Of a DNA stretch of 64,000 bases, positions 2 through 64,000 are shown piece by piece; the first letter of the stretch is position 1, and each line of letters opens with the position of its first letter. Origin of the DNA: a virus; the IMG/VR virus record IMGVR_UViG_3300025108_000022, positions 38,648 through 102,647 of that record. The stretch is one strand, 5' to 3'. Position numbers and translations under genes: made by a program. The notes under the pieces are model-generated. The model did no database searches, was not told the DNA's origin, and was given only the letters and a program-made list of their open reading frames with translations.

Positions 2-1849
2 ATGCAATTGATGAGAGGTGGAGGTTTGGATAAAATGACAACCTTCGCCCCAATGGTTGCAGGGGGAGGACTTGCCACCCAAGAAGTGCCTCTTGGGCCA
101 ATCCATCCTCAATCACACGCTACAATTCCGCCAGTGTATTTGACAGGCGATAAAGACGCTTGGGGACATAAAATGCCAGCGACCCTCGCATTTAATTGGG
201 ACAGGGAAAACAATAGCACACGGTTTGAGGTAAAGGACAAGCCGTTTGAAACTCTTCAACGCACCGTCCATGAAGGCCATGTGGGAATGGTTCACCCTAC
301 ACATGCAGATCACGCATTGAAACCAAAGGTCAATTCAATTCCGGCTCTTGAAGTCACTGATGAAATGGGCGCACCTCCTATTCTAAATGGCGACATTTTC
401 AAAGCCGACGATTATGAACCAACGGGAGTGTTTGAGAAAGTCATTGTCCCAGCACATACTGTTTATGATTTTAGTTCAATAGACGACTTGAGAGGATTCA
501 CTGGTGATTGGGTCGTTCAAAAGAAACCCGAAGGAAAGCGTGTATTCATCCAAAAGAAAGGCGGCCATATCAAAGCCAGCAACGGAAAGGGCAGGGATGT
601 GTCTTTGCCGAAGAAGGTCAAAGAAGGCATACGCAAACAAGAAGGAGATTGCACTTTTGACGGTGTTTTGAAAGACGGCAAGTTCCGAGCCATCGATCTG
701 TTGGTGCATAAGGGCGACGACATTCACATGGAAAAATTAGAAGACAGGCTCACCATCCTTCGCACACTTTACGAAACTGACGAAGGCGTTTCATTCCCAA
801 TGCCAGCCGACTGTAAGTTCAGTGACCGTGAAGGTTTGCGGTCAAACATGGACGCACTTGGCGGAGAACTATGGCTTCGTGACTCCACCTCCACCTTTAT
901 GAAAGGAAAAGAAGCACACCATAAATGGGTTCACTACGCACCGGACGGAGATGGTGTCAAGAAAATGTATGGGCCGTTCCCATCGGTTTCTATTCGCAAC
1001 AACCGAATGGTGCTTGAATACCCCGGACACCCTGCACCGTTGGTGGTGAAGGGTGAGTGGGATGGGGAAGGTTTTGACTATCAAGGATTTGAGAAAGGTT
1101 CACGGCCACTATTGATTCACGCTGAAAGGCAAATGAATGTGTGGGGGCCAGTCGGTGTTCACTTGCTGAAATATGAAATTAGTGAAATTACACCATACCC
1201 ACCATTCATCAAGACCGCTTCTTCAACGCTTTTCAAAGCCTCCTTATTGGACACCGATGGAAAGGCGAATCCGGTTGAAGAGATACTGACTCACGCCCGA
1301 CAACACTTGACGGGTGGTGACGAAGCACTGACCCCAGCCGAATTGAAGGCTAATGTCAAAGGTTTGACCGATGAAATGCTCGATCAGTTCGGTGCCGAAT
1401 ATGGTTTAGAAGCCACTGAAAACGGAAAGTGGACTGTCAATCAAGCGATTGACGACGATATGATGGGGGAAAAGGCCATCAGTTCACCAATAGCAAGGAT
1501 AAGCGGCAGTGTTCAAGGTGGTGGCTGGGCTGGTATGATGGACGCTTATACGGCTCCAAGAGGGCCAACCGAATTACTTGACGACGAGGCAACGCCGTTT
1601 TTTGACCCAATGCAACCGGATGATGCCCAATTAGAGGGAATGCCACAGCACATCAAGATCCAAACAACAGACGGGGAGGGGGAAGAGATTGATGGGGATT
1701 TAACCCTTGAAGGCAACACTGCGACCCTGCGTTTCCCTCAAAAAACAGAACAAGAAGTCAAGGATGAGCAAGAAATTAAGGTGCCTATGGAGGATTCGGA
1801 GGGGGACGGAATGATGCCTCCCGAACCCCCTGCCGCCCCTATCGCTTAA
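2..1849 (+). CDS. Head-module protein (probably 5'-truncated) with a divergent ATP-dependent DNA ligase-like nucleotidyltransferase domain
   Basis: Motif I-like WVVQKKPEGKR, motif III-like TFDGVL, IIIa-like FRAIDLL followed by LEDRLTILR; motifs IV and V degenerate; acidic Pro-rich C-terminus; directly upstream of the prohead protease. Confidence 0.65.
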   Translation: MQLMRGGGLDKMTTFAPMVAGGGLATQEVPLGPIHPQSHATIPPVYLTGDKDAWGHKMPATLAFNWDRENNSTRFEVKDKPFETLQRTVHEGHVGMVHPTHADHALKPKVNSIPALEVTDEMGAPPILNGDIFKADDYEPTGVFEKVIVPAHTVYDFSSIDDLRGFTGDWVVQKKPEGKRVFIQKKGGHIKASNGKGRDVSLPKKVKEGIRKQEGDCTFDGVLKDGKFRAIDLLVHKGDDIHMEKLEDRLTILRTLYETDEGVSFPMPADCKFSDREGLRSNMDALGGELWLRDSTSTFMKGKEAHHKWVHYAPDGDGVKKMYGPFPSVSIRNNRMVLEYPGHPAPLVVKGEWDGEGFDYQGFEKGSRPLLIHAERQMNVWGPVGVHLLKYEISEITPYPPFIKTASSTLFKASLLDTDGKANPVEEILTHARQHLTGGDEALTPAELKANVKGLTDEMLDQFGAEYGLEATENGKWTVNQAIDDDMMGEKAISSPIARISGSVQGGGWAGMMDAYTAPRGPTELLDDEATPFFDPMQPDDAQLEGMPQHIKIQTTDGEGEEIDGDLTLEGNTATLRFPQKTEQEVKDEQEIKVPMEDSEGDGMMPPEPPAAPIA

Positions 1850-1872
1850 ATACCATGACATAAAATGGGTGA
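1846..1872 (+). promoter_or_regulatory. Putative archaeal TATA box (TTAAATA 1846-1852) and GGTGA SD (1868-1872) for the protease/capsid operon
   Basis: TATA-like element about 25 nt upstream of ATG 1877; GGTGA 4 nt before the ATG. Confidence 0.5.
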
Positions 1873-1876
1873 GATA

Positions 1877-3193
1877 ATGGCGACCACTGCAACATGGACA
1901 GCGACCGGAGCAGACTTCATTTTGAAGTCAGCAACCGGAAACGATCTTGTTATTGCTGGCTACGCTTCTGTTGACATGGTTGATAAGCAGGGAGATAGAA
2001 TCCCTGTGTCGGCTCTCAAGAAGGCATTCAACGGCTTTATGGCCGACCCAGCATACCGAAATGTGCAATTAGCGCACAGTGGTATTCAAGTGGGAGAAGT
2101 TCTTTCAAATTATACTGACAGTGAAGGCCGAGTATGGAAATCCACTGTTGATGATCACGGACTGTTTGTCGTGTGCAAGATCCGCAACGACATTGAAAAG
2201 GCCCGTGAAGTCCAAAAGCAAGTTCGCAGTGGCGAACTGCGAGCATTCTCCATTGGGGGCCAAGCGTTGTTCCGTGTTAGCAAGACTACACCGGAACACG
2301 GCACCCACCGTGAAATCACGGACATGGAATTGCATGAAATTACTTTGTGCAAAAAAGGAATAAACCCCGAAAGCACATACACCCTACTGAAAATGGACGA
2401 TGATAACATGAGCAACGAAGCAGAAACCCTAACCGAAATCCGTGACGCTTTGTCACGAATCAACAAGCAAATTGAACAACCAACATACGAAGAACCAGTA
2501 TATGCTGATGATTCGTTGGCTAAGGAAGAAGAAGCCGCAGTGGCTTACATTGACTCTCTTGAAAAGTTCGCACACCAGCAAGGCGTGAACCTTGACGGCC
2601 TACGAGATCACTTTGGACTCGGCAAGGCTTACATGGTCGGCGTTGATGGAGAGCATGGATTCGGACACCGAGGACAAGGCGACCTTTACGGAAGTGGAGA
2701 AGACGCAACCCTCGCTACTGCACCAAAACTCCCAAATGCAAAATCCAACAAGTATGTCATTAAGCAAAATGGCGTGCCGAACATGAAAATGAATGCACCG
2801 TCCGGTGGCCGAAATGTCATCAAAGGCGGATTGGATCTTTCCCCTGCCTCCCTTGAGCGTGGCTACGGTGCTTACTCCGCAATTCGTGATGAAGAAGCGG
2901 TCAAAGCACTTGTTGAGAAAGAATGGCACGACCGCTATGAAGCGGAAACCCAATCAGCCCTCAACATGCAAAAGGCCACTGATTACTCCGGCCAAATTGA
3001 GATGTTGAAGCAAGAAATCGCATCCCTACGCAACGAAACCTCCACCATAGCGAAATCCGCAGTGCCAGTTCCGGCACAGTCGGACATTCGTGTTCCGACC
3101 CATGAAGAGTTCATGGCTCTTGGAGATGGCTTGGACGGATGGCGTGCGCTTGAAGAACTCGGACAGCGTGCCCTTCATGGAGCAAACTTTTGA
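1877..3193 (+). CDS. HK97-type prohead (maturation) protease with C-terminal scaffold-like coiled-coil region
   Basis: VIAGYASVDMVDKQGDRI, LAHS (His), LRAFSIGG (Ser), LHEITLCKKGINP; acidic helical C-terminal half; immediately upstream of MCP. Confidence 0.85.
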   Translation: MATTATWTATGADFILKSATGNDLVIAGYASVDMVDKQGDRIPVSALKKAFNGFMADPAYRNVQLAHSGIQVGEVLSNYTDSEGRVWKSTVDDHGLFVVCKIRNDIEKAREVQKQVRSGELRAFSIGGQALFRVSKTTPEHGTHREITDMELHEITLCKKGINPESTYTLLKMDDDNMSNEAETLTEIRDALSRINKQIEQPTYEEPVYADDSLAKEEEAAVAYIDSLEKFAHQQGVNLDGLRDHFGLGKAYMVGVDGEHGFGHRGQGDLYGSGEDATLATAPKLPNAKSNKYVIKQNGVPNMKMNAPSGGRNVIKGGLDLSPASLERGYGAYSAIRDEEAVKALVEKEWHDRYEAETQSALNMQKATDYSGQIEMLKQEIASLRNETSTIAKSAVPVPAQSDIRVPTHEEFMALGDGLDGWRALEELGQRALHGANF

Positions 3194-3207
3194 AAGGAGA
3201 TGATTAG

Positions 3208-4374
3208 ATGAGTGGAAGCACAGGATATATTCGCACAATTGAAGACATGGAACGACTCTATTACGGAGCCGGAACAGGACAAAACGCATGGGCATACGCT
3301 GGAACCGACCTTTTGAAGTCGGACTCCCCGCTAATGTCCTCAACCGGCGGAACATACCAAGCGATCTTCGGTCGTAAAGTATGGTCGCAATTGAACCAAG
3401 AGTTCAACGCATTCTCCATCCTCCCTAAGAAACCGTGGGAGAAGAGTGGATGGCGTGTCACCACAGCAAAGCCGGACTTCGGAAAAGGCGGCGGTGTGGC
3501 TGAAAACGCAACCCTACCGGAAACCACCAAGCCGACCTTTGAGCATGTTTCAACCAAGCCAAAGACGGTTGCACACTCCTTTGACCTCTCCGAAACAGCC
3601 ATGTTCTTGGCTGACAAGGATGATGGACTGGGCGATGCACGGGCTGTTATCAAAATGGAAATGGCAAAGCACCACACAGAACACATCAACAAGATGCTTC
3701 TTCAAGATGTCAACACTGTTGCTGGAAACGACTTTGAGTCCCTTGACAGAATCACTTCTTCGTCTTTCGTTGAAAGCACAGGCTTCGGCGACATTGACGC
3801 AATCAGCAATCACAACATTTACAACCTCACCCGAAACGGTGCTGGGGCTGGATCTCAACAGTGGTATGACGCTCAAGTGGACGCAGGTGCAAACAACGGA
3901 ACTGACCGTGCTTTGACCCTCAACATTCTTGACGGAATGTTCCGACAGATTTGGGAAGCAGGAGGTCAGCCAAAGGTTATCCTCACTGGCTACGACACTC
4001 TTGAAACCATTCAGCAATTGCTCCAACCTCAACAACGATTCGTTGAGATGAAGCGTGTCGTCCCCGGCGTCAATGGCGTTAAGGGTGTTCCGGGCATTCA
4101 AGGTGGATTCATGGTCGCAACCTACAACGGTGTCCCAATCATCCCATCTAAGGATGTTCACAAGGGCACTGGCGGTTCTTCTCGCCTTTACTTCTTGGAC
4201 ACAGACTACTTGTGGTTCACCACTGCAAAGCCAACACTCTATCACGAATCGGGAATTGAAACCGGAGATCCTTTCGGTATCAACAGGCTCGGACAAATGG
4301 GAATGTTTCACACAATGGGTGAACTCATCGCATCTTTCTTCAAGGCAAGCGGAAAAATCCGTGACCTATCGTGA
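3208..4374 (+). CDS. Major capsid protein (HK97 fold)
   Basis: 388 aa after the protease; GGGVAENATLPET, KPKTVAHSFDLSE, GGFMVATYNGVPIIPSKDV and LYFLDTDYL resemble archaeal tailed-virus MCPs; GGAG SD. Confidence 0.85.
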   Translation: MSGSTGYIRTIEDMERLYYGAGTGQNAWAYAGTDLLKSDSPLMSSTGGTYQAIFGRKVWSQLNQEFNAFSILPKKPWEKSGWRVTTAKPDFGKGGGVAENATLPETTKPTFEHVSTKPKTVAHSFDLSETAMFLADKDDGLGDARAVIKMEMAKHHTEHINKMLLQDVNTVAGNDFESLDRITSSSFVESTGFGDIDAISNHNIYNLTRNGAGAGSQQWYDAQVDAGANNGTDRALTLNILDGMFRQIWEAGGQPKVILTGYDTLETIQQLLQPQQRFVEMKRVVPGVNGVKGVPGIQGGFMVATYNGVPIIPSKDVHKGTGGSSRLYFLDTDYLWFTTAKPTLYHESGIETGDPFGINRLGQMGMFHTMGELIASFFKASGKIRDLS

Positions 4375-4407
4375 TACAAAAAATGAAAAATATGGAGATG
4401 ATTTGAT

Positions 4408-4815: not shown

Positions 4816-4836
4816 GTCGGTTAGGAGGGATTTAGC

Positions 4837-5280
4837 GTGGCAATACTACAATATGTTGGCGACAGGCCGTATGTTGAGTTCAAGGTTGGACAAAAGACAT
4901 TCGGCTTCGCAAGAGGCACAGAACGAAGTGATGTTCCCAAAGAACTTCTTGAGCGTTTCAAGGGCGACAATTTCCCACAGTGGAAAGTCATTGGCGGCGA
5001 AGAAAAGAAGTCCGAGGAAAAGACCAAGAAAATGGTTGAAGTGATCGAAGCCCCCGCTGTGGTTGAAGAAACACCAGCACCGGCACCAAAGACAGTCGCC
5101 ACTGACGAGGACAAGACCGAGCAGATGGCTGACGCTATCATTCCGCCTTTTGACACTACATGGACAAGAGCCAAAATGGTTGACTGGATGAAGTCGCAGG
5201 GTGAAAGCGTATCAAAGGCTGACACCAAAGCAATTCTCACTGAAAGGGCACATGCACTCACCTCAAAGGGTGATGAGTGA
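4837..5280 (+). CDS. Hypothetical protein with C-terminal HeH/LEM-like motif
   Basis: GTG start after GGAGG; Pro/Ala/Glu linker then WTRAKMVDWMKSQGESVSKADTKAILTERA. Confidence 0.5.
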   Translation: MAILQYVGDRPYVEFKVGQKTFGFARGTERSDVPKELLERFKGDNFPQWKVIGGEEKKSEEKTKKMVEVIEAPAVVEETPAPAPKTVATDEDKTEQMADAIIPPFDTTWTRAKMVDWMKSQGESVSKADTKAILTERAHALTSKGDE

Positions 5281-5855: not shown

Positions 5856-5862
5856 GGAATCC

Positions 5863-5868
5863 TTTTAA
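5863..5868 (+). promoter_or_regulatory. Putative TATA box (TTTTAA)
   Basis: Short AT-rich intergenic element preceded by purine-rich AAGGAA, about 20-30 nt before ATG 5890/5899. Confidence 0.35.
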
Positions 5869-34546: not shown

Positions 34547-34704
34547 TGATTTGGAGTTTGACATTTGCGATAATAACAGTGGTGTGTATTTTTTTGATTT
34601 ATGAGGTATTCAACCTTGTCCAAATACCACCCGAAAACGACGGTGACGAAGAGGCTGAACGCCAAGCAATTATCGCTTCAATGTCCCGTCAGCATTTGAG
34701 GTGA
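34543..34704 (+). CDS. 53-aa single-pass membrane protein (not in ORF track)
   Basis: MMIWSLTFAIITVVCIFLIYEVFNLVQIPPENDGDEEAERQAIIASMSRQHLR; overlaps both neighbours (ATGA, GTGA). Confidence 0.6.
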   Translation: MMIWSLTFAIITVVCIFLIYEVFNLVQIPPENDGDEEAERQAIIASMSRQHLR

Positions 34705-36089
34705 AGCGTTTGTTAAATAGCCCCGAAGCATTCGATCAAGCGTGGTCGATCATGAAGGGCATTGTTTTCAACGGTCAGTATTTTGAGGATATTGACGAAA
34801 TGGATCCTATGGTGGTTGAAGCCCTTCGCATGTTTAACCAAGACAAAGAAGCCAACCCTTTGCCCGAACCACCGTTTCAAGCAAAGGGGCGCATAGGGAA
34901 ACCGTTCAAGGCCATGAGGGATGCTCGTTTGGCGGGCATAGACCATCAACCTATTTTTGACGCTATGCCGGGATTCACCGATTCCGAGAACAACATGCTC
35001 TCAACCTTCATCAATTGGGAGGGCGGAAAAACGAGCGAAATGCCAAAGTTCCGTGCGATGGCTCGGCATTTGGGCGATTGGGAACGACCAGTGGAGCCAA
35101 TGACGGGAAGTGGGTCTTTCGTGTTGGGTATGAATCGGGGAACGGGGTTGATGAATGACATGAACCCCGACATCGTGAATGTTCACCAACAGGCAAAGAG
35201 AGGTTTGGGTGATGTAGCAATTCCTCAATCCCAAGAGGCTCATAACACAGCCATTGACGCTATGAACGCTATTCGTGAAAGAAGGGATGTTGACGGCGAA
35301 GAACTTTCGCAACAAGAACTCACTGACCTTGCTCGGCTGTTTGTGGGCAACAACCTGTCTTCTTACCGAACTGATTGGCGAGGGGTGGACTGGGCTGGGC
35401 GCACAGAAGTCAACGAGAAGGGCAAAACGGTGCCGATGGGAGGGTTTGATGGGGACTACGCTGTCCCTTATACAGAAGGCCGTGTTCCCTATCAGTCTTG
35501 GCGTGATAACAACGAAGAGGTTGAGCGTCTATTCCAATTGACAGAACAACAACAAGGCAAGACTCTCAAAGACAGGGCGAATGCGGCTGGACTGACTGAC
35601 GCTGAACGCAAAAAGGTTGGCAATTGGCGGGCTTTCCCTCACCATGCTGGTTCAATCAACCTTAACTCCTATGCTCCACGCTACAAAGGGGTGGACATCC
35701 GACACGGCGACGCTTTTGACCTCCACGAATTGTTGCGACCGACTGATTTGTTGTATCTAGATCCGCCGTATATTGGCCGTGATATGGATTATGGGGCGAC
35801 CTCATTACAGCGTCAAGGAAGAACATACGACGATTTCCAAAGAAAAATCCTGCAAATGGGTCGTGAACACGAAGGCCCATCCATCCTATCCAATTACATG
35901 TATGCGAAGGATCAACATCAGCCCCTTGAACAATACATCAAGGATGTCATAGATTCCGGCTACACTATTTTCCCGTGGCTACGCTCACCGAAAGCAAACA
36001 ATTTCCCACAGGTGGAGATGTTCGGATTGAAAGGGATTGAAGGGCCGATACCCGGTTTAGCACGAAGCACCCAAACCAAATTGTATTGA
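34701..36089 (+). CDS. Dam-family (alpha-class) DNA adenine methyltransferase
   Basis: FINWEGGK, VEPMTGSGS (motif I), MNDMNPDIVN, LLYLDPPY (motif IV), ILSN; start may be TTG 34710 after GAGGTGA. Confidence 0.85.
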   Translation: MKRLLNSPEAFDQAWSIMKGIVFNGQYFEDIDEMDPMVVEALRMFNQDKEANPLPEPPFQAKGRIGKPFKAMRDARLAGIDHQPIFDAMPGFTDSENNMLSTFINWEGGKTSEMPKFRAMARHLGDWERPVEPMTGSGSFVLGMNRGTGLMNDMNPDIVNVHQQAKRGLGDVAIPQSQEAHNTAIDAMNAIRERRDVDGEELSQQELTDLARLFVGNNLSSYRTDWRGVDWAGRTEVNEKGKTVPMGGFDGDYAVPYTEGRVPYQSWRDNNEEVERLFQLTEQQQGKTLKDRANAAGLTDAERKKVGNWRAFPHHAGSINLNSYAPRYKGVDIRHGDAFDLHELLRPTDLLYLDPPYIGRDMDYGATSLQRQGRTYDDFQRKILQMGREHEGPSILSNYMYAKDQHQPLEQYIKDVIDSGYTIFPWLRSPKANNFPQVEMFGLKGIEGPIPGLARSTQTKLY

Positions 36090-38459: not shown

Positions 38460-39167
38460 TTAGGCATTGGTAATTTTGACTCTCTCTTTCACCACAGCCG
38501 ACTCGCTGTTTAGTGCCTCAACAATGGACTTAGCACGGACTTTGCCAATGCCTTCAAGTTTCATCAGTTCTTTCACAGAAGCCCCAGCAATTTCAGCGAT
38601 TGACCCGAAAGAAGACAGCAAACGCTTTGCGATAGCCTCACTACATCCGATACCACGGAGTCCGTCAATCCGTATATCCTCGCTTGAGGTGCGACGGAGT
38701 GTGCGGTATGTGCTAATGCTCCCAAGAGTGCCGTCCTTTTCACATCGTTTCACGATCCAGTAGGCGGCGGCGGAGGGAGTAGGGAATTGCATGATTGTTA
38801 AGTCAAAGTCAACATCAAGTCTTGACAATGAACCTAAGAACTGCGCTTGAATGCGGGCGTATGGTGTCCTGTTGCCTCTTCGCTTGAGGCTTGCCACATA
38901 GGCGTCCAGTTTGCCATGAATAACCAATATCATGCGGTTGTAGTTCTCATCCATGTTCTCCAATTGGTGAGCAAGGTGTCCACTTTGGAGGGATTGCATG
39001 TAGTCGGCAATACTCTTAGCCTCAATGCCGATTTGACCGTAGCAGTAGTCCGTGATCAAGTTTTGGTTAAGTTCCCACTTGATTTTTGCCTTGTCGGCTT
39101 GTTTTTTGACGGCTTCTTCAAGGCCAGATCGTTCACGATTGTCAATGTATAGGATTTTTTCAACCAT
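38460..39167 (-). CDS. ERCC4/XPF-family structure-specific nuclease with HhH motifs
   Basis: IDNRE, IGIEAKSIADY...SLQSGHL, C-terminal GIGCSEAIAKRLL and LEGIGKVRA. Confidence 0.85.
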   Translation of the reverse strand: MVEKILYIDNRERSGLEEAVKKQADKAKIKWELNQNLITDYCYGQIGIEAKSIADYMQSLQSGHLAHQLENMDENYNRMILVIHGKLDAYVASLKRRGNRTPYARIQAQFLGSLSRLDVDFDLTIMQFPTPSAAAYWIVKRCEKDGTLGSISTYRTLRRTSSEDIRIDGLRGIGCSEAIAKRLLSSFGSIAEIAGASVKELMKLEGIGKVRAKSIVEALNSESAVVKERVKITNA

Positions 39168-40890: not shown

Positions 40891-40899
40891 AATACTCAC
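40877..40899. repeat. Direct repeat copy 1 flanking beta-MTase (21/23 identical to 42205-42227)
   Basis: GTGCTTCGTGTCATAATACTCAC vs GTGCTTCGTGTCATATTGCTCAC. Confidence 0.9.
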
Positions 40900-42218
40900 C
40901 ATTCAAAGAGCGACCTTTGCGCCCGAAGGACACGCACTTTTTGTTCCTCTATTTCAACCCAATGTGAAATCCGATGGCGAGCGATGCCGATGTATTCTTC
41001 TTCACGCTCAATGCCAATGAAATTGAAGCCCTCCACATTCGCCGCAATACCAGTAGTTCCACTCCCCATGAACGGATCTAAGACGACTCCGTTGGGAGGC
41101 GTGACGAGTCGGCATAGGTATTTCATCAAATTAACGGGCTTAACCGTTGGGTGTATGTTTTTTCGGTATTCAACTTTGTTGTGTAAAGACGAAGGCTTCG
41201 CTTCGTCGTTTTCGTGCTTGAAATCCTCACTCCCACGCTTCAATTCGGCTTTTGCTTGATTGCTCCACGCAACAAGTTGCGGTTCTTTGTCTTCCAAACC
41301 AAAGTCCTTTTCCGCTTTGCTCGCTTTAGCGCAGTAAAAGAATCGGGCGGCTGAACCATTTCCCATCTCGGTGCGAACCCCGTTGTCCACATTCCCCCAT
41401 CCCCCTTCGTAATGTTCACCCATAGCCACATTGGACTTCTTTGGGAACGCACCACCATTGGATTGAGGGAACAGGTTCACGACTTCATCCGAGCCATCGT
41501 GAATGAAATTGGCGGGGAATCTCCCTAAAGCGTGTTGATCCTGTGCTTCTTTGTTGTCTTTCATGCCAAAATTGACAACGGCATTCTCCCTGTTGTTGCT
41601 ACCAATGGATAATTTCTCGTTGGTGGCTATTCGGCAACCGTCAATGTTCAAACCGCCTGTGCCATGCTCAAGCACATTCTCAACGATAGTGCCGATAAGG
41701 GGCTTGCGGGCGACCACGATAGGCTCATGGGCAGGTTTGAGGGATGAACCCCACCCCTCCCATTTTTTCGCTTCGTCGGTTTGTGGGTTCTCCGCTGTTT
41801 TCTCTTTCATTTGAAATCCCAATGGCCCTTTCACTGTTCGTGATGAAGGGAGGACTTCTCCCTCAACATAGCGACCCGCTTTTTTGTCAATGTTCTTACT
41901 GACGGACTGACTTTTTGGGAAGCCCGACCCATAGACCCACATGATTTGATCACGGATTTCAAAGCCAGCGTCCTCTATGTTCACGGCCATGCGGTGATAT
42001 GTGCGAGAACCAGCAAATGATAGCAAATATCCTCCCGGTTTCAATACTCGGAAAGCCTCTTTCCACATCTCAACCGAAGGCACATCGTAGTCCCACTTCT
42101 TGCCCATGAAGGACAGTCCGTATGGTGGATCGGTGACGATTGAGTCAACGCTGTTATCCTCCATTTTCTCAAGTATAGCGATACAATCTCCGTGTATTAG
42201 TTCTGTGCTTCGTGTCAT
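40896..42218 (-). CDS. Beta-class N6-adenine/N4-cytosine DNA methyltransferase
   Basis: LIHGDC, DSIVTDPPY, HPTVKPV, VLDPFMGSGTTG, FIGIERE. Confidence 0.92.
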   Translation of the reverse strand: MTRSTELIHGDCIAILEKMEDNSVDSIVTDPPYGLSFMGKKWDYDVPSVEMWKEAFRVLKPGGYLLSFAGSRTYHRMAVNIEDAGFEIRDQIMWVYGSGFPKSQSVSKNIDKKAGRYVEGEVLPSSRTVKGPLGFQMKEKTAENPQTDEAKKWEGWGSSLKPAHEPIVVARKPLIGTIVENVLEHGTGGLNIDGCRIATNEKLSIGSNNRENAVVNFGMKDNKEAQDQHALGRFPANFIHDGSDEVVNLFPQSNGGAFPKKSNVAMGEHYEGGWGNVDNGVRTEMGNGSAARFFYCAKASKAEKDFGLEDKEPQLVAWSNQAKAELKRGSEDFKHENDEAKPSSLHNKVEYRKNIHPTVKPVNLMKYLCRLVTPPNGVVLDPFMGSGTTGIAANVEGFNFIGIEREEEYIGIARHRISHWVEIEEQKVRVLRAQRSLFEW

Positions 42219-42227
42219 ATTGCTCAC
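42205..42227. repeat. Direct repeat copy 2 flanking beta-MTase
   Basis: See 40877-40899. Confidence 0.9.
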
Positions 42228-43165
42228 TCCAAGTGTGTTTGATAACGAGGACAGAACTCTTTGAGAGCGCACCACGGGTCGCAAATTGAGTATTGGCGAC
42301 CGGGTGCAATAAGTGGGAACATGCTGATGTCGCCGTCGCCCTTGTAGCGTCGGTGCATACGGACGAGGTTTTGCATATCAGCCATCATCAAGCCCAGTTC
42401 TTTGACACGAACTGCCTCCACCAAGCGGAACATTTCAGCGTCTTCGGTATCGGTGCCCTTGACACCCTTAGTGTGATCCCACCCCCAGTGGGTGATTTGT
42501 GCCGAAGGGTCAGCCTTTCGCAACGCCCACACATAAAACGCCATTTCCTTTCTCATAGCCTCGTATTTGTATTTGGCTTCTTTCCAAGCACCTGTCTTGA
42601 GTTCGTGAATGTGTAGTGTCCCGTCGGGGTTAGTGTAAATGCGGTCAATAAAACCGTTGATATGTATGCGTTGGGGTTGTCCGTCAACCTTAATTTCAAC
42701 CACGCAATCAATCTCCATCTCGTTGCCAGTCGGCAGGAAGTGTTCGGGGTCGCTGTTGTTGAAGCGGTCAATCTCCTTCACACGGAAACGGTCAATGTGC
42801 AGATCTTCATCCAAAAAGAACGAATCCTGTGCCGAACGGATTTCCTTTGAAGTGGGGAAGCACTCACGGAAATAGCCATCAAGGTCAGTTTCGGCACTTG
42901 CCTTTTCAATATCCACCCTGTCATAGAATCCTTCAACAGCGTCGTGGACATTGGTGCCCCGTAGCATGTTGTCGTTCTGTGGTTCCTTCATACCAACGAT
43001 TCGTTTTAGGCCGTATTGTTGAGCGCAAAAGGTGGACTCGCCCAGCGAGGACTTGCTCATACGGAGAATGATGTTGTCGGGCATACCGGGGTGCCAATCA
43101 TAACATGAGAACAAGTCCTCATGGTTCGGCACAGGGTATGGGCGTGGTGGCTTATGGGTAATCAT
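42224..43165 (-). CDS. Cas4-like PD-(D/E)XK exonuclease (solo, replication-associated)
   Basis: N-terminal Cys (FCAQQY), RGTNVHD, GFIDRI, IHELKTG, EMAFY, C-terminal CDPWCALKEFCP. Confidence 0.8.
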   Translation of the reverse strand: MITHKPPRPYPVPNHEDLFSCYDWHPGMPDNIILRMSKSSLGESTFCAQQYGLKRIVGMKEPQNDNMLRGTNVHDAVEGFYDRVDIEKASAETDLDGYFRECFPTSKEIRSAQDSFFLDEDLHIDRFRVKEIDRFNNSDPEHFLPTGNEMEIDCVVEIKVDGQPQRIHINGFIDRIYTNPDGTLHIHELKTGAWKEAKYKYEAMRKEMAFYVWALRKADPSAQITHWGWDHTKGVKGTDTEDAEMFRLVEAVRVKELGLMMADMQNLVRMHRRYKGDGDISMFPLIAPGRQYSICDPWCALKEFCPRYQTHLE

Positions 43166-44122
43166 TCACCACCACTCCTTTGGTTCGGGCTGTTCGTCTT
43201 TCTTGACCCATTCAAATTGCTCAAGGACTGACTTGTTTCCGGGGTCATTGATTTCGCATGACATGGCATCGTCGCTGTGTAGTTCCTCTTCCCCTCCCCA
43301 CATTTCAACAATACCCTGTTGATCGTCGTGGTAAATGCTCACCGCATCACAGGAATTGCATTCAAATGGCCGTCGGCCTTCGGGCACGAATCCATCGGCG
43401 AACTTCTGTTCCATTTCAGCAAGGGTGTTGTATTGGTTCATCCCGTGCTTCATTGGGGAAACCTTTCGGCTTTCCTCGTCCCAGTGCTTGGCTTGCGCCC
43501 ATAGATCTGGATATTTTTTCCATAGAACATACCACGATGAAGTGGGTTGTTTGATGCAGTGAAAGCACCCCAAGCGTTGAAAATTGACATACAATGGGTT
43601 CACCATGTCAAGTTTGTCAAGGTATTTGAAAGCGTCTTCTTCTGTCCAGCCCCACTCAATGAGAGGATAACGAATGCCGTCCTCCTTTGCGGTCTTTGAC
43701 ACACGCCTCTTCTCGTCTATGGCGATACCGACATACTTGATCGTGCATTCCTTAGTCGCCCGTTGAAGAGGATAGAGTTTGGCTTCTCTCGCCCAGTAGC
43801 AAGGATAAACGATGAGGGGTGCCCCACGAACATTTCCTTCGTTTTTGCCCCTCGTCACCTTGCCATAGAACCACTCGTTCCATGACTTCTTTGAGAACAC
43901 ATGTTCAATGTGCAATCCTTTTTCGGGGTATTTTTCTTGAATGTATTTTTCAACATGCTTGATGTAGTCGTAAAGTTCGGGGAACTCAAAACCAGTGTCA
44001 GCGAATACAATGCGGTGAATCGGATAGTTTGGATCGTCCAGTTCAAGCATCCTCAATAACATAGCCGTTGAATCCTTTCCGCCGCTGAACGACACCATCG
44101 CAATATCCTGTTTCTCTTCCAT
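43166..44122 (-). CDS. PAPS reductase/DndC-like PP-loop protein
   Basis: VSFSGGKDSTAML, FADTGFEFPE, RYPLIEWGW, RLGCFHC. Confidence 0.85.
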   Translation of the reverse strand: MEEKQDIAMVSFSGGKDSTAMLLRMLELDDPNYPIHRIVFADTGFEFPELYDYIKHVEKYIQEKYPEKGLHIEHVFSKKSWNEWFYGKVTRGKNEGNVRGAPLIVYPCYWAREAKLYPLQRATKECTIKYVGIAIDEKRRVSKTAKEDGIRYPLIEWGWTEEDAFKYLDKLDMVNPLYVNFQRLGCFHCIKQPTSSWYVLWKKYPDLWAQAKHWDEESRKVSPMKHGMNQYNTLAEMEQKFADGFVPEGRRPFECNSCDAVSIYHDDQQGIVEMWGGEEELHSDDAMSCEINDPGNKSVLEQFEWVKKDEQPEPKEWW

Positions 44123-54564: not shown

Positions 54565-55322
54565 TCGCTCACCTGCCCGAATGAATCAATGAAAGAAGGT
54601 GGGTGGCCTGTTGCGACAACAACAGGGCTTACATTGTCCACTGATAGTTCAGTCGTTGGTGGTGAACCAGCAGGGGATGGGATTTCCGCTGTGTCGGTGT
54701 TCGCCTCCATTGGCGTGGAATGTGGATCTAGAGGTATTGGTATGACCTCCATGCTGGTGTGAGTAGCACCTGCTGTGGTGCCGACGAATGTGGTCTTGAG
54801 TTCAGCCATCCATTCAGCCACTTCAACAGCGTGCTTCAATGGAGGGGCGACCTTCTTGTCAAAGGTGAACTTGCCGTCCTTGACGGTCATGCCAGCGGTG
54901 AGTGCGTCTTTGACCTCGGTGAGTGCTTTGTCGGCAACCTTGCCGTTGAGCATACCCACCAGTTTGTCAAGGAGGATTTCAGCAATAAGAGTCGGAGGGA
55001 CATTCCCAGTCTTGACCTTATCAGCCAGTCCGACATCGTTGCGATAGCCGTTGCCGAGAGTCTTTTTGTTCTCGTCGCAGGGTTGGAGCATTAAGCACAT
55101 AACACCGGGGACTTCAATGTCAATGGTTGGATTAGCGACAGCGTTTGGCTTGCCGTCGTTTTCCTTGCGTTCATCGGCTGTCAGTAGTTTGCCACGACGA
55201 GCCAAGAACTCGGACTCAAGTGCTGTGCCGAAGTCCCGAACGGATGCGCCGACACCAGCGAGGTTGTCGATCTGCTCATCGGAGAGTCCTTCAACGAATG
55301 ATTTGAAACGCTTCTTGCTCAT
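54561..55322 (-). CDS. Hypothetical protein
   Basis: 253 aa from ATG 55322 (ATGA overlap). Confidence 0.55.
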   Translation of the reverse strand: MSKKRFKSFVEGLSDEQIDNLAGVGASVRDFGTALESEFLARRGKLLTADERKENDGKPNAVANPTIDIEVPGVMCLMLQPCDENKKTLGNGYRNDVGLADKVKTGNVPPTLIAEILLDKLVGMLNGKVADKALTEVKDALTAGMTVKDGKFTFDKKVAPPLKHAVEVAEWMAELKTTFVGTTAGATHTSMEVIPIPLDPHSTPMEANTDTAEIPSPAGSPPTTELSVDNVSPVVVATGHPPSFIDSFGQVSE

Positions 55323-58577: not shown

Positions 58578-58769
58578 TCAAAACGCCCTCCCTTTGGATA
58601 GGGTGTCAATGTCGTCAATGGTAATTTCATCGATCAACACACGGAAAATGAACTCCCTGTATGGGCGGCTGGCATTGTAGCACAAACCATGCAACAGGAG
58701 TGTCAATTCGTTGTTCAATTCCTCATCGGTCGCTGTTTCAAGATCTATGTTTTTCGTTTTTTCAGTCAT
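58578..58769 (-). CDS. Hypothetical protein
   Basis: 63 aa from ATG 58769 after GGTGA. Confidence 0.45.
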   Translation of the reverse strand: MTEKTKNIDLETATDEELNNELTLLLHGLCYNASRPYREFIFRVLIDEITIDDIDTLSKGRAF

Positions 58770-59293: not shown

Positions 59294-60699
59294 TGTATCA
59301 CCTCGTTTGTTTGTGTTGAATCACCCACAGACACACAGTCAGCGGGGACAACCTTGAGCCGAACTGCTTGGCTAAGAAGGTATTCTTTGGAGCATCGTGG
59401 ATCGAAGCGTGCCCGTGTCTTGCGGTGAAGCGCACAGCGTAAATCCTCCACGCTGATGTCCTCCCATGTGAGGGTTGGCTTGGGTTCCTCCGGCTGGGGG
59501 ATGGTGGCCTTCTCCTTGTCAGCGAACGGCTTCACTGTGTGCATGTTGCGTGATAGGTATTCGTCCATGCGAACCAGCCCCTCCCAGCGAGCGTCGCTGG
59601 TGGGGTTGTCCCAATTGTATGGGTTCCAGTCGGCTTTACAATCCCCAAGAATCACTTCATACCACGCTTCCTCCTTCGTGGTGAGTAGCGAGGTGGAGAG
59701 GGAGTCGTGAGTCAGTATTGAATTGAACACATGCTCGGTGGCTTCACGCCAGCAACCCATGTTCAGATCTGTGAACTTGCTGTTATCATCAAAAGTGTCG
59801 TCGCCGTGAACTTCCCAGCAACGGGTGATAATCGCTTTGATGTATCGCTTGGCGTGCGAGCGTTCCTTCTTCACCAATTCCTGTGGAGTCGGCTCGGCTT
59901 TTGGTGTTGAAGCATGGGGCTGGAAGAATCTGTTAATGCGAAGTGGTTCGTTGTTGTTCAATTTGTTCTCAATGATGCGCTGAACTTTCTTGCTGGGGCC
60001 GTAGCCTTTGTTGCTGGCGTAGCCCATGTTGAACGGGTTGCATTCCTTCTCGGTGAGGCCAAACCACGGTTGCATCAGTTTGAGCATCATGCGGTTGAAC
60101 ATGATGTCGTGTGGGCGTCGCTTGCCGTTCCTGCCGTGGTGTTCTTTGTAGTGTGTCAATTGGAACACATGGATCATCTCATGGAGTAGCACTTTGAGGG
60201 CACGGGCAGTGGCCTCTCCTTCATCACCATTGACTGACATGGTGATACCGTATTTGGGGCCACCCCGTGCGCTCTTGGTTCGTGCGTCTTTGGCGAACTG
60301 GATTCTGATCGAGCCACGCTGGCGAACACGCTTGATGGATTGGCGAGCCTGTGTCTTGTCAGTCTTTCGCCACAAATCACGGGCACATTCGTTGGTGACG
60401 GTGGCGATGTGCTTTTGATTGGTTCGGGTTCTGTATGACGGCCTCTCTCCTTCACGGGTGGCGTATTCAAACGCCTCATGGGCGATTGCTCCTATGTCCG
60501 TGTTCATGCACACATGGCGTGCAAAGTCCATGATGTTGATTCGCTGATCTGGATTTGCTGGGTGCTTCAATCTGTATTTGTCAATGTCATACCACTGGGT
60601 CGTCATTCGCTTGTCCTCATGTGAATTAGGGGTCGGGCGTATATCAACATGCTTGCCGAATATCCTCTCTATCTCTTGAATTAGATTTGGCATGTTCAT
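59290..60699 (-). CDS. SprT-like zinc metallopeptidase domain protein
   Basis: VLLHEMIH...RRPHDIMF (HExxH plus downstream His); start ATG 60699 after AGGAGG. Confidence 0.65.
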   Translation of the reverse strand: MNMPNLIQEIERIFGKHVDIRPTPNSHEDKRMTTQWYDIDKYRLKHPANPDQRINIMDFARHVCMNTDIGAIAHEAFEYATREGERPSYRTRTNQKHIATVTNECARDLWRKTDKTQARQSIKRVRQRGSIRIQFAKDARTKSARGGPKYGITMSVNGDEGEATARALKVLLHEMIHVFQLTHYKEHHGRNGKRRPHDIMFNRMMLKLMQPWFGLTEKECNPFNMGYASNKGYGPSKKVQRIIENKLNNNEPLRINRFFQPHASTPKAEPTPQELVKKERSHAKRYIKAIITRCWEVHGDDTFDDNSKFTDLNMGCWREATEHVFNSILTHDSLSTSLLTTKEEAWYEVILGDCKADWNPYNWDNPTSDARWEGLVRMDEYLSRNMHTVKPFADKEKATIPQPEEPKPTLTWEDISVEDLRCALHRKTRARFDPRCSKEYLLSQAVRLKVVPADCVSVGDSTQTNEVIQ

Positions 60700-60971
60700 G
60701 CCTCCTTTTGCTGGATGAGTCCTTCGGCACGAATCACCTGTGTGATTTCCTGTGGCCGTTGTCCTGTGAATGTGAATGTTCCTGTTTCGTGATGAATAAC
60801 CCACGAAGAACGGGGGTGAAAAACGCCGTCGTAGCGACGCTGTGGTGGACGATAATGGATCAGTGATGGTGGAGAGCCTGTGGCTTGCTTGATGGCTTGC
60901 CACAGCATACGCACCTTGCGCTGTCCCTGCTTGGGCGATTCCTCGTAGCGTGCTTCAATGAACCCTGTCAT
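60696..60971 (-). CDS. Hypothetical protein
   Basis: 91 aa after GGAGG. Confidence 0.45.
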   Translation of the reverse strand: MTGFIEARYEESPKQGQRKVRMLWQAIKQATGSPPSLIHYRPPQRRYDGVFHPRSSWVIHHETGTFTFTGQRPQEITQVIRAEGLIQQKEA

Positions 60972-61261
60972 GCTTCGTCCTCCGCTGTGTTGATGAGGAC
61001 AGTGAACTCCACGCCGTTTTCCCGTAATAGTCGCATCACGGTTTGTGGTGTAGCACCAGCCAAAGACCAGTCCAAGAACCATGTCTTAGCAGATGGCTGG
61101 CCTTGCTTGATAGCAAAACCAGTGTCAAAGGATATGCCGTTCTCTTGAAGGTGTTCATGCACCTTAGCCATGCGAGGCGTGTGCAATTCCTCTTGCTGGA
61201 TTCGCACTTCAAAGGAGAGCAGATCTGCGGTGCTTCCCACAGGTTGCGGTGAATCACTCAT
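60968..61261 (-). CDS. Hypothetical protein
   Basis: 97 aa, coupled. Confidence 0.45.
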   Translation of the reverse strand: MSDSPQPVGSTADLLSFEVRIQQEELHTPRMAKVHEHLQENGISFDTGFAIKQGQPSAKTWFLDWSLAGATPQTVMRLLRENGVEFTVLINTAEDEA

Positions 61262-61446
61262 TGAACTCCCTCCCCGTCCACATCGTCCATCGTGGCTGGT
61301 CGGATGTCAAGACCCCACGGGGACTCACAGCCCCCACAGAAGAGAACAGGCGTGTTGCCCGATGGTTGATAGATTTTCAGTCGTTCGCCACAGCCTTTAC
61401 AGCATGGGTATTCGTTGAATCCGTGAATCGTCCACTGTTTGCTCAT
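61258..61446 (-). CDS. Zn-finger micro-protein
   Basis: CCKGC...FCGGC. Confidence 0.5.
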   Translation of the reverse strand: MSKQWTIHGFNEYPCCKGCGERLKIYQPSGNTPVLFCGGCESPWGLDIRPATMDDVDGEGVQ

Positions 61447-61985
61447 GCGCTCACCTCGTTCGGTGTGCAACCGTAGCGGATCTGGTCAATCAATATGTCA
61501 ATGCGCTTGTCCTCGTCCTCTCGTTCGTGGTCGTAAATGCACCACACAGCATAGACTGTGCTTGAACCGAGGTCAGCGTCGTCTATGATGTATTGAGAGG
61601 GCTTCTCGTCATACTGGGAGAGTCCTGTCATGTATGCGAATCGGTCAGCACTGTCAAGTGGGACAACAATGCGTGATGAACCCACAGCGAATGGTGGAGA
61701 GGCATTCGTGTATTCCTCTCTCCAATTTTTCCTTTCCTGTTCAGTCAGTCGTTCAACGCAAATCGTGGAGCCATGAATGTCCTTCATCATCACTTCACGA
61801 TTGTTGGCCTTTTGGTGCATGTCCTTGAGCATGTTTTCCCAGCCAGCAATCGTGTTGTTGATCTGCTGGTATTGGTCTTCGGTCAGTTCTCCTGTCGCCT
61901 TCATGGCGTGTGCTGAACAGCACGCCGCCTCAAGGTCGGATAGCGTTTGACTCATCTCGTCAGTCATTCGTGTTGAATCGCTCAT
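61443..61985 (-). CDS. Hypothetical protein
   Basis: 180 aa bounded by the 17-nt repeats. Confidence 0.55.
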   Translation of the reverse strand: MSDSTRMTDEMSQTLSDLEAACCSAHAMKATGELTEDQYQQINNTIAGWENMLKDMHQKANNREVMMKDIHGSTICVERLTEQERKNWREEYTNASPPFAVGSSRIVVPLDSADRFAYMTGLSQYDEKPSQYIIDDADLGSSTVYAVWCIYDHEREDEDKRIDILIDQIRYGCTPNEVSA

Positions 61986-62089
61986 GCGCTCACCTCCACC
62001 ACTTCAAAGAATCCTTTCCATTCCTCAAGCAAGATCTTGAGTTCTGTTTCGTTTAGGTTTTCATGCCAATTGATTTCGTATTTTTTCAT
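61982..62089 (-). CDS. 35-aa hypothetical micro-protein
   Basis: MKKYEINW...EVSA; GGAGG SD; ATGA overlaps. Confidence 0.45.
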   Translation of the reverse strand: MKKYEINWHENLNETELKILLEEWKGFFEVVEVSA

Positions 62090-62199
62090 GCTGATTCCTC
62101 CTTGTTGTAGCAATCCGATGAACAGTATGTTGCACCAGTATGCGGAGTCAGTGGTTTGTAGCAAACAACACAGTTCCCAAGTTCGGGTTTGAATGTCAT
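62086..62199 (-). CDS. 37-aa Zn-finger micro-protein (not in ORF track)
   Basis: MTFKPELGNCVVCYKPLTPHTGATYCSSDCYNKEESA. Confidence 0.55.
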   Translation of the reverse strand: MTFKPELGNCVVCYKPLTPHTGATYCSSDCYNKEESA

Positions 62200-62411
62200 G
62201 CTGATTCCTCCAAGCGGTTTTGCCAGTGCTTGACACCAGCGTCGTCCACATTGTATGAACTCATTCCTGCAAGGCAGATCGTGAGTTCATTCTTTGTATG
62301 CTGGGCGATACCACAGCCACAGAAGCGGCAAATGTCGCCTTCGGTCGGTTCCTTGAACTTCACCACATCAAGTGGGAGCAGTGCGTATTTTTTTCTATAA
62401 GAGTCGGTCAT
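62196..62411 (-). CDS. Small Cys/His protein
   Basis: 71 aa; CRFCGC...H...C; ends EESA. Confidence 0.45.
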   Translation of the reverse strand: MTDSYRKKYALLPLDVVKFKEPTEGDICRFCGCGIAQHTKNELTICLAGMSSYNVDDAGVKHWQNRLEESA

Positions 62412-62451
62412 TTTGATTCCCCGTTGTTCAGTCCACACAGTCCGGCCTATA

Positions 62452-62832
62452 TCAAGCCTCGCAATACCCATGCTTGAGCAATTTGGCGTGCCGATAATGG
62501 TTGTCCATGTCCTTTGCTGTCCACATTTGACACGGTGTAATGACGACCTCTTGTGGGTGTGGATCGTTGGAGTCCTTGAGCGTGCATTGATAGCCAGCCA
62601 TGACAACCTTCTTGACTCGTTGTGCCGTCGCTGGCGAGTCTGCTGGGAACTCCCAACCATTGTGGTTAAAGTCCCCATTGTCTGTGTCAAAGCGCAGGGC
62701 ACCATGATAGCCCAAGTCCTCGTCGTCGCCAGCAAAGCGTCCACGGAGGACGAACAAATACTTGCGTGCCGCATCCCATGTGCTGAAACACTGGATGCCG
62801 TAGCCGTCGCTGATGGTGAAGATCTGCCTCAT
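62452..62832 (-). CDS. Hypothetical protein
   Basis: 126 aa from ATG 62832. Confidence 0.45.
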   Translation of the reverse strand: MRQIFTISDGYGIQCFSTWDAARKYLFVLRGRFAGDDEDLGYHGALRFDTDNGDFNHNGWEFPADSPATAQRVKKVVMAGYQCTLKDSNDPHPQEVVITPCQMWTAKDMDNHYRHAKLLKHGYCEA

Positions 62833-63137
62833 GCTGATTCCTCCATTTGGCGTTCCTCTTCGGCAATCCATTCATCAGCAACCTCTCGGTGCTTTGCGGT
62901 CAATTGCCAAGCACCACCGGGCATAGTGATTGTTTCACCGGGGAGTTCAATGACATGATCGACCCTCTCCAAGTAGCCAGCATGACCCAGCCACCAGTTC
63001 AAATCCTTCATGGTTGAGCCGTGATTGACGCACTGTTGCCAGTGCCCCAGCACAGCGGCCTCAAAGGCACGCAAGCGTGCGACTTCGTTGATTGAAGGCA
63101 CATCACCAGTGTTCAGATCTGCGTTGTCGCTCATCAA
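62829..63137 (-). CDS. Hypothetical protein
   Basis: 102 aa; ends EESA. Confidence 0.45.
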   Translation of the reverse strand: MMSDNADLNTGDVPSINEVARLRAFEAAVLGHWQQCVNHGSTMKDLNWWLGHAGYLERVDHVIELPGETITMPGGAWQLTAKHREVADEWIAEEERQMEESA

Positions 63138-63460
63138 ACCTCGCCTCCTTCAAAGCCAGCCGTGAGGCCAGCAGTTCGTGGCAAACGGTGGGTTTCCTGC
63201 GCTTCGGAGTCAGCCAGTCGGCGAGCCATGCGCTCGTCCATCGCTCGCTGGGATTCGTAGCCCAGTGCTTCGGCACGGGCTTCACAGCGAGGACAGTATC
63301 GTGTTGGGTGCGACCATATTCCTGCCTGTGTGCGAATGGATTCACGCTGGGCGTCAAGCATCTCGCTGATGTATGCGTCAGCGTCAACGGCGAACACATG
63401 ACGATCACATGCGGAAGCACCACATTGGATGTGGATCGAACCGACGATGCTCAAGCCCAT
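63134..63460 (-). CDS. Hypothetical Zn-binding protein
   Basis: CGASAC...YCPRC. Confidence 0.45.
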   Translation of the reverse strand: MGLSIVGSIHIQCGASACDRHVFAVDADAYISEMLDAQRESIRTQAGIWSHPTRYCPRCEARAEALGYESQRAMDERMARRLADSEAQETHRLPRTAGLTAGFEGGEV

Positions 63461-63873
63461 TCCTCCTTGAAGGACGCACTGCCGAAGGCACCACTGGCCT
63501 CAACATCGTCATTAACGACATCAAGTTCAATGGTGAAGTCCTCGGCGACAATGGTGGTGTTGTCGTCGGTGGTTGGTGGTGAAACGCTGGGTTCCTGTGC
63601 CGCCAGTTCCTCCGCTGATGGTTCACCGACACCGACCTCAAGTCGGCGTAGATCGTGCTTGATTTGGGTTGCTTTGATTGCTTGAACATCCCACTTGGCG
63701 ACCTCTCGCATTTCAGTGAGAAGGGCGTTGTAGTCCTCTTCACGGCACGGCTTTGTGTCCTTGATGAACTGGGTGTAGTCAGCGGCGAAACGCTCGCCAC
63801 CAGCGGCCACACAGGCCACCATTCCGCCAGCCTTCATGCCGGGTGGGAGTGGTGTGTATGGCAAGATGCCCAC
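63451..63873 (-). CDS. Hypothetical acidic protein
   Basis: 140 aa, operon order. Confidence 0.45.
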   Translation of the reverse strand: MGILPYTPLPPGMKAGGMVACVAAGGERFAADYTQFIKDTKPCREEDYNALLTEMREVAKWDVQAIKATQIKHDLRRLEVGVGEPSAEELAAQEPSVSPPTTDDNTTIVAEDFTIELDVVNDDVEASGAFGSASFKEEWA

Positions 63874-64000
63874 GATTCGTGCTGGCTTGCTGGCGAAGTT
63901 CTCGGCGTGTCGCTTCTTGATGAGTTCACCAAGTGTGCCGGTGAGTGCTGACCCAGCGTCATTGAGGACAGCAGGGACTCGGCGAAAGCAGATCTGGACT

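Follow-up and report, generated by a model that had tools for sequence, protein, structure and literature searches.

Avoided words survive only in overlap with GATC in a magrovirus genome, a footprint consistent with protective modification of viral DNA

Avoided words survive only in overlap with GATC

The DNA analyzed is a 64-kb stretch (hereafter, the window; 50% G+C) of IMG/VR record IMGVR_UViG_3300025108_000022, which is from a magrovirus, a virus of ocean archaea. Three words, TCGA, YCWGR, and CTAG, are absent from the window outside of GATC and occur at neutral frequency where they overlap with it. A modification specific to GATC and written by the virus probably shields the overlapping restriction sites from the host (rough probability of 0.8). 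Both the pattern and a shielding modification had been put forward in a first-pass annotation of the window; exact counts bear out the former, and the latter gains support, all of it drawn from sequence.

GATC is present in 199 copies by exact count. Every TCGA in the window (35/35) is part of TCGATC or GATCGA, every YCWGR (31/31) is part of GATCWGR or YCWGATC, and the two CTAG (2/2) are in CTAGATC (at 35757) and GATCTAG (at 54725). Relative to a first-order Markov model, which supplies the observed/expected values, the words are missing outside of GATC (0/225 for TCGA, 0/484 for YCWGR, and 0/74 for CTAG) and are near expectation in overlap (35/24 for TCGA, 2/1.9 for CTAG, and, for YCWGR, 31/25 when two bases are shared and 0/6.4 when one base is shared). 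The first-pass annotation had predicted this outcome of k-mer counts, and all seven sites for which it quoted coordinates hold the strings that it had read. The survivors, 68 in total, all share at least 1 bp with a complete GATC, and no avoided word that merely adjoins GATC without overlap survives in the window. The footprint and the sites that illustrate it are as follows.

693..63998, no strand: window-wide footprint of 35 TCGA, 31 YCWGR, and 2 CTAG, each overlapping GATC
693..698, + strand: TCGATC, in which TCGA and GATC share GA (string read)
5043..5048, + strand: GATCGA (string read)
35757..35763, + strand: CTAGATC, one of the two CTAG, within the codons for L-D-P in the catalytic LDPPY motif of the Dam-type DNA methyltransferase (MTase)
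39124..39130, + strand: CCAGATC, in which YCWGR and GATC share GA (string read)
43504..43510, + strand: GATCTGG, in which YCWGR and GATC share TC (string read)
54725..54731, + strand: GATCTAG, the other CTAG (string read)

A reference for unconstrained DNA is available from a host cell. At 81% identity, the capsid protein of the window is matched on a contig of 106 kb from the single amplified genome "uncultured Candidatus Poseidoniales archaeon AG-422-I20," which is probably an infected cell that links virus and host directly. In its host contigs, 10–13% of TCGA, 8–9% of YCWGR, and 4–6% of CTAG overlap GATC. Because only 4–13% of such words overlap GATC in unconstrained DNA, the proportions of 35/35, 31/31, and 2/2 are far beyond chance.

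The footprint recurs in related viruses

Relatives were gathered as whole contigs (G numbers), found by way of the major capsid protein, and as loci around neighboring genes (L numbers), and MTases in them were sought by six-frame searches. The viral contig of the single cell is contig 2 of G019 (L217–L222; AG-422-I20 is L216), and locus sets correspond to G017 (L243–L248), G008 (L123–L127), and G001 and G011 (L111–L115 and L128–L130).

In G009, which has 99% capsid identity to the window and whose contig covers the region upstream of it, every TCGA (13/13), YCWGR (11/11), and CGCG (3/3) overlaps GATC. The same is true of YCWGR (14/14) and CTAG (3/3) in G005, where TCGA is not avoided; of TCGA (18/18), CTAG (1/1), and CGCG (1/1) in G004; and of TCGA (41/41) and CGCG (5/5) in G003. 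When counts are pooled over rescue-positive genomes only, and values outside of GATC are followed by those in overlap, each as observed/expected, TCGA is at 0/798 and 107/67.5, TCWGA at 0/329 and 31/27.4, CGCG at 1/738 and 9/14.8, CTAG at 0/554 and 6/10.9 (seven sites when G007 is added, of which about five are independent), CGAACG at 0/61 and 4/1.0, and TCATGA at 0/73 and 3/6.1. Loci L137–L139 have GATC at 0.73–0.88 of expectation and keep the full footprint, with all TCGA (8/8, 9/9, and 11/11) and all YCWGR (8/8, 6/6, and 10/10) in overlap. The GATC-free genome G017 has 0/535 TCGA and 1/702 YCWGR; the words have no refuge there because the pressure is equal but no GATC is present.

Sites with CTAG show two further features. 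The CTAGATC in the LDPPY codons is kept in relatives G005 and G004, and among the CTAG survivors (window 35757 and 54728; G005 61607; G007 64072), four of five independent sites read TCTAGATC or GATCTAGA, in which the far side holds a T. Such a T is above expectation (p about 0.03) and unexplained, and CGCG survivors have no such preference. In G008, CTAG is not avoided, yet there are 32 copies of CTAGATC/GATCTAG where 5.6 are expected, as well as 23 of TCTAGA; the excess may represent a repeated functional motif.

Selection acts on the viral DNA

The pattern reflects selection on viral DNA because host contigs show no avoidance, synonymous codons are routed away from the words, and sites private to one lineage lie by GATC. 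Per 100 kb, host contigs of AG-422-I20 have 293 AGCT, 159 CCWGG, 508 TCGA, 387 CTAG, and 419 GATC, and none of the 64 palindromic hexamers is missing. The viral contig of the same single cell is unlike its host, with 0 AGCT, 0 CCWGG, and 0 GCWGC, and with 38 of 64 palindromic hexamers absent. Codon choice within the window follows the same avoidance. TTC makes up 70.5% of Phe codons in general but 5.5% of those ahead of Asp or Glu, and codons of the form xTC fall from 22–70% to 1–5% in this position. The exceptions to the latter, in which xTC precedes GAx, are all in the context of GATC (18/18), either as G-ATC-GAx or as xTC-GAT-C. Strong depletion, a host unlike its virus, and synonymous routing are all as expected of restriction-driven site avoidance in a virus.

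Comparison of the window with L139, to which it has 90% nucleotide identity, captures the process at a finer scale. Each has private TCGA and YCWGR sites and these are always beside GATC, with typical differences being GATCGG versus GATCGA and CTTGATC versus CCTGATC. Turnover of sites is ongoing between the two lineages.

Avoidance extends far beyond three words

The first-pass annotation was correct about TCGA, YCWGR, and CTAG, but these are a fraction of the words that the virus avoids. In the window, ACGT, GTAC, AGCT, and CGCG are each at 0 versus 123–233 expected, CCWGG, GCWGC, GGWCC, CAGAG, CTCAG, GAGAC, and GTWAC are each at 0, and 54 of the 64 possible palindromic hexamers do not occur. 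GGCC is present in 193 copies, none of which has palindromic flanks. A single GTAGA/TCTAC is present, and neither AGGTAG nor GGTAGA is found, which fits GGTAG, reported as a novel methylated motif of a metagenome-assembled genome (MAG) of Marine Group IIa (MGIIa; PMC9516812).

Across lineages, the set of avoided words varies. Each hexamer is all-or-none per lineage, as seen in the window, G004, G005, G003, G008, G006, and the single-cell viral contig. GATATC is present only in G008 (58 copies), TTGCAA in G004, G008, and the single-cell virus (61, 42, and 34 copies, respectively), and GAATTC is at either 0 or 10–48 depending on genome. CAATTG is present in every genome at 26–94 copies; the 66 in the window are four times the 15.6 expected from base composition. 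In GATC-free G017, CGCG (1,072 copies versus ~670 expected) and GCGC (843 copies) are strongly enriched, and TCGA, YCWGR, ACGT, AGCT, GTAC, CTAG, CCWGG, and GCWGC are all at 0 or 1. Because the word sets that are avoided differ between lineages, they point to several independent host specificities.

A proposed GATC mark as a shield against host restriction

From the footprint, its repetition among relatives, and the link of GATC to D12 genes described below, we infer a covalent modification as the agent and, likewise, the base that it marks and the gene that writes it. In the proposed mechanism, virion DNA would carry a modification specific to GATC that is written during infection by at least one virus-encoded MTase, most likely a D12 (Dam-class) enzyme that makes G-m6A-TC (m6A, N6-methyladenine). 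The host population, Poseidoniales (Marine Group II, MGII), would encode many restriction systems, the target words of which the virus has purged. At a target word that overlaps GATC, the mark would lie within the target or on its border, and the overlapped site would look hemi-modified to the host enzyme, which would not cut. Selection against overlapped sites would be lifted and these would drift to neutral frequency. In TCGA, TCWGR, TCATGA, and TCCGGA, which have two bases in common with GATC, the m6A would be inside the shielded word.

Retention of GATC tracks with gene content. GATC is at 0 in 45 of 80 loci (~700 kb) centered on a conserved neighbor gene, and tblastn found no Dam-type gene bearing the N-terminal motif described below in any of these 45 loci. 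It is also at 0 in the whole contigs G016 (100% complete), G017 (98%), and G018. In eight GATC-free genomes (G006, G016–G018, and G025–G028), PF02086 has no match above its cut-off, and in G006 the syntenic slot of the Dam-type gene is 976 bp and empty. Conversely, each of the six GATC-keeping genomes that are ≥90% complete (G004, G008, G020, G021, G022, and G024) has a D12 match, that of G021 being under the Pfam cut-off, as do most partial GATC-keeping genomes, though the lineages counted are related and not fully independent. In single cell AG-422-I20, the sole D12 match is on the viral contig. As judged by gene content, GATC is kept with a D12 MTase and purged without one.

Rescue depends on the enzyme, as not every word is spared in overlap with GATC. 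There are no survivors of CCWGG at 1-base overlap, and YCWGR that shares only its degenerate outer Y with GATC is represented by one site versus ~13 expected when pooled. CAGAG (0/7.2), CTCAG (0/8.8), and GTAGA (1/12.2, as GTAGATC) are not rescued, nor are hexamers of the form C....G at 1-base overlap (0/7.7). CGATCG is at 0 in all fetched viral genomes except for G003 and the single-cell viral contig.

Candidate writers are carried in exchangeable cassettes

The window encodes two orphan MTases, which the first-pass annotation had named as candidate writers.

34701..36089, + strand: candidate writer 1, a 462-aa DNA MTase of the D12/Dam class that closes the late operon
40896..42284, - strand: candidate writer 2 (weak), a TDPPY-bearing MTase of the beta class (N6/N4), flanked by the cas4-like nuclease and the primase

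The Dam-type MTase matches PF02086 at 41.3 bits (cut-off of 22), with only profile positions 1–63 aligned. Its motifs are in alpha-class order, with WEGGK...EPMTGSGS at residues 106–139 followed by LDPPY at residues 353–357, and are invariant in 10 orthologues except for a DPQY in G013. DpnM and EcoDam are its best sequence matches in PDB. An AlphaFold2 model of moderate confidence (predicted local distance difference test, pLDDT, of 64; predicted template modeling score, pTM, of 0.67) has Mcbe1, EcoDam, DpnM, and T4Dam as best Foldseek matches (E of 3e-7 to 1e-3; target-normalized template modeling score of 0.54–0.59). The enzyme is thus predicted by its model to have a Dam-like fold. A single-sequence search with the gene in IMG/VR recovered only one relative.

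The gene is a cassette. Homology to the closest relatives, L137–L139 (~90% nucleotide identity), breaks exactly at window positions 34698 and 36088, and in those loci the slot is occupied by a gene for a 420-aa C5-type protein with a SPPCEGNS motif (12322–13602 of L139), other family members of which are in G008, also in the Dam-type slot, and in L160. The C5-type slot protein has no Pfam match and no sequence match in PDB. The N terminus of the window Dam-type MTase has the motif AFDQAWSIMKG, and Dam-type and C5-type slot proteins have in common an N-terminal A..GW..[LM]K motif. The motif is a putative tag for loading into the capsid, carried by some of the interchangeable MTase cassettes. 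The swap between Dam-type and C5-type genes does not single out a writer, since the 4- to 6-mer profiles of the window and L139 are the same.

The beta-class MTase matches PF01555 (8.6e-36) and has CcrM and DpnA as best PDB matches. It too is a cassette (window 40907–42209), and L136–L138 have an unrelated segment of 0.9 kb instead; in other relatives, the slot has a MTase with a TSPPY motif in front (G003 and G004) or in its place (G005). The TDPPY enzyme is a poor candidate because it is missing from L136–L138, which keep the footprint, and because a homologue is present in GATC-free L159. Relatives encode four further MTase families, namely TSPPY beta-class enzymes, a second D12-like family, the C5-type slot enzyme, and an NPPF enzyme. 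The PDB sequence matches of TSPPY enzymes mix N6A and N4C enzymes, and either base may be the target. Members of the second D12-like family are sometimes fused to a GP88 domain, those of G004 and G008 have a canonical PLKWAGSK, and one is upstream of the window region in G009, where the D12-like open reading frame (ORF) has no Pfam match. The two MTases of the window are therefore too narrow a list of writers, given the second D12-like MTase and the cassette swap. It is possible that both exchangeable cassettes act on GATC, that the second D12-like enzyme is the writer, or that the swap is recent.

Several observations weigh against a shielding GATC mark that a D12 enzyme writes as m6A. The survivors of CGCG, CTAG, and CGAACG share only a G:C pair with GATC, which would place m6A outside of the word, and overlap with YCWGR would place m6A on the degenerate R; rescue at a single shared base is not easily explained by plain m6A. 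TGATCA is at 0 in G005 and G003, and also in the single-cell viral contig, though BclI is Dam-blocked. In G001 and G011, TCGA in overlap is at 1/13.7 and 1/9.5, respectively, despite the presence of GATC and a Dam orthologue; these two genomes have a TSPPY MTase, and AGATCT is at 0. The match of the window Dam-type MTase to TIGR00571 is at 49 bits, under the cut-off of 115. Its residue in the place of Lys in EcoDam (INWEGGK versus LKWAGGK), which we take to be Lys9, is Asn; across the Dam-type family the residue is Asn, His, or Pro, and on these features the enzyme is not a canonical Dam. The closest relatives (L136–L139) keep the footprint and the k-mer profile with a C5-type gene instead of a Dam-type gene.

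Alternative explanations for the footprint

The protective mark could instead be, or include, N4-methylcytosine (m4C, made by TSPPY beta-class enzymes) or 5-methylcytosine (m5C, made by the C5-type cassette) on the G:C pair of GATC, which we regard as possible, though with clearly lower odds than a mark written by a D12 enzyme. That the first-pass annotation had considered the C of GATC as an alternative now carries more weight, since CGCG, CTAG, and CGAACG are rescued in several lineages via the G:C pair alone (9/14.8, 6/10.9, and 4/1.0). This C is the sole position common to every rescued word; in TCGA and YCWGR a mark there would fall on the inner, invariant C, and in CGCG, CTAG, and CGAACG on the outer one, which would mimic the hemi-methylated state of the hosts. 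The failure of YCWGR to be rescued through its outer Y also favors a mark on C. TSPPY MTases are present in G003, G004, and G005, a C5-type MTase is in the Dam slot of the footprint-keeping L137–L139, and the CGCG methylation seen by SMRT (single-molecule real-time) sequencing in MGIIa MAGs is necessarily on C (PMC9516812). However, the window has neither a TSPPY nor a C5 MTase, and both of its MTases have a DPPY motif typical of adenine enzymes. G004 (95% complete) shows rescue but has no C5 MTase, and GATC-free G006 has a TSPPY homologue. Moreover, a mark on C should protect CGATCG, which is absent nearly everywhere, and AGATCT, which is absent in G001 and G011. Neither C....G hexamers nor CCWGG are rescued at 1-base overlap. 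Comparison of 1-base rescue with cassette type is underpowered, with CGCG in overlap at 0 versus 2.4 expected in G008.

A related and similarly tentative proposal is that both A and C of GATC are marked, or that GATC bears a bulkier adduct, written by interchangeable MTase cassettes. If so, a four-base umbrella mark would imitate the hemi-methylated self of at least six unrelated host systems, and the methyl-sensitivity of enzymes in uncultured hosts could be read from viral sequence.

It is unlikely that a host enzyme writes the mark and that progeny inherit it. Of the marine archaeal MAGs that were examined, nearly all have GATC modified at 19–99% (PMC8919816); hosts that methylate GATC are thus common, and a mark written by them is chemically plausible. 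But host methylation alone is no reliable shield because lineages lacking a D12 MTase have purged GATC entirely, as in the 45 loci and three whole contigs in which it is at 0, and in the infected single cell the sole D12 match is on the viral contig.

Explanations without modification, in which a GATC-binding protein (for instance, a capsid-tagged MTase that travels with the DNA) covers the sites or host enzymes dislike GATC flanks, are very improbable. The capsid-tag-like motif common to Dam-type and C5-type slot proteins would allow for co-injection with DNA. However, a protein footprint of ~10 bp should also spare adjoining sites, and we reject a steric shield because there are no surviving avoided words that adjoin GATC but do not overlap with it; protection by protein would also need to be near complete at ~300 sites per genome. 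It is implausible that five or more unrelated specificities would all dislike the same flank.

Other candidates were discarded. A 7-deazaguanine at the G of GATC was rejected as unlikely because 15 related contigs have no TGT/DpdA homologue. Phosphorothioation is unlikely. Its candidate gene, which encodes a phosphoadenosine phosphosulfate (PAPS)-reductase/DndC-like protein (43166–44122, between PolB and the cas4-like nuclease), is absent from several footprint-bearing genomes, and Dnd modification is only partial. No homologue was found in G001, G003–G006, or G008. The gene is present only in the lineage of the window, with L136–L139 aligning across it, and is not needed for the footprint because of this specificity. 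Retention of GATC for some other function was rejected because an avoided word can be destroyed while sparing GATC (TCGATC to TTGATC), as is seen between relatives.

The virus and its gene neighborhood

The two arms of the window are oriented in opposite directions.

1–36 kb, + strand: late structural arm, with a prohead protease, an HK97-like capsid protein, and ORFs of 1700 and 3215 aa
36–64 kb, - strand: replication arm, with XPF/ERCC4-HhH, primase, cas4-like nuclease, PolB, and an RFC-like ATPase

IMG/VR contains 254 relatives of the capsid protein, with identities of 77–99%. The closest kin of the window PolB in a phage database are haloarchaeal tailed viruses at ~24% identity, and a megablast search with 12 kb of the window against a phage collection gave no match.

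Comparison with known systems

Surface ocean waters are rich in magroviruses and in Poseidoniales, their hosts; both are uncultured. The footprint predicts GATC-modified virion DNA from sequence alone and lists host restriction specificities by whether or not a GATC mark would block them. Collateral protection by one viral MTase would loosen sequence constraint at dozens of sites, and the loss of most 6-bp palindromes, the all-or-none pattern of hexamers by lineage, and swappable MTase cassettes suggest that restriction pressure is intense. Conditional k-mer analysis could infer viral epigenomes generally.

Overlapping Dam methylation blocks TaqI (TCGA), Hpy188I (TCNGA), BspHI (TCATGA), BspEI (TCCGGA), XbaI, and NruI, and ClaI and BclI are likewise blocked in cloning practice. 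The logic is alike, and the rescued words TCGA, TCWGA, TCATGA, and TCCGGA are of the known Dam-overlap-sensitive TC...GA class. We know of no Dam-overlap block for CGCG, CTAG, or CGAACG. What is a nuisance in vitro is here an evolutionary footprint in a wild virus that involves uncharacterized archaeal enzymes.

In haloarchaeal tailed viruses, those that carry Dam keep GATC and others lack it (PMC8651126), and M.phiCh1-I is a further example of self-methylation. Magroviruses show the same either/or, with GATC kept when D12 is present and at 0 when absent. Collateral overlap protection of other avoided words is not described in that paper, and, unlike the haloarchaeal case, magrovirus MTases are in swappable cassettes, one with a capsid-tag-like N terminus.

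Avoidance of restriction sites, or palindromes, is established for prokaryotic viruses (Rusinov et al. 2018; PMC6286503), and GATC-free staphylococcal phages are classic examples. Magroviruses are alike in that depletion is specific to the virus, is not seen in the host, and involves synonymous codon choice. They differ in the unusual degree of avoidance, which takes in the complete loss of four 4-mers and of 54 out of 64 palindromic hexamers, and in that it is conditional on context; overlap with methylated motifs is not mentioned in that study.

Published methylomes of marine MGII/Euryarchaeota MAGs include GATC, CGCG, GTAC, GGTAG, TCGCGA, and weak AGCT (PMC8919816, PMC9516812). Of these, GATC, CGCG, GTAC, GGTAG, and AGCT match words avoided by the virus; nothing was found in these methylomes on modification of TCGA, YCWGR, or CTAG in such hosts. 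In our search of the literature, we found no paper on restriction avoidance in magroviruses and none on avoided sites retained solely where they overlap a self-methylated motif. Site avoidance and self-methylation are the known parts of this system, and collateral shielding that is visible as a genomic footprint is the new part.

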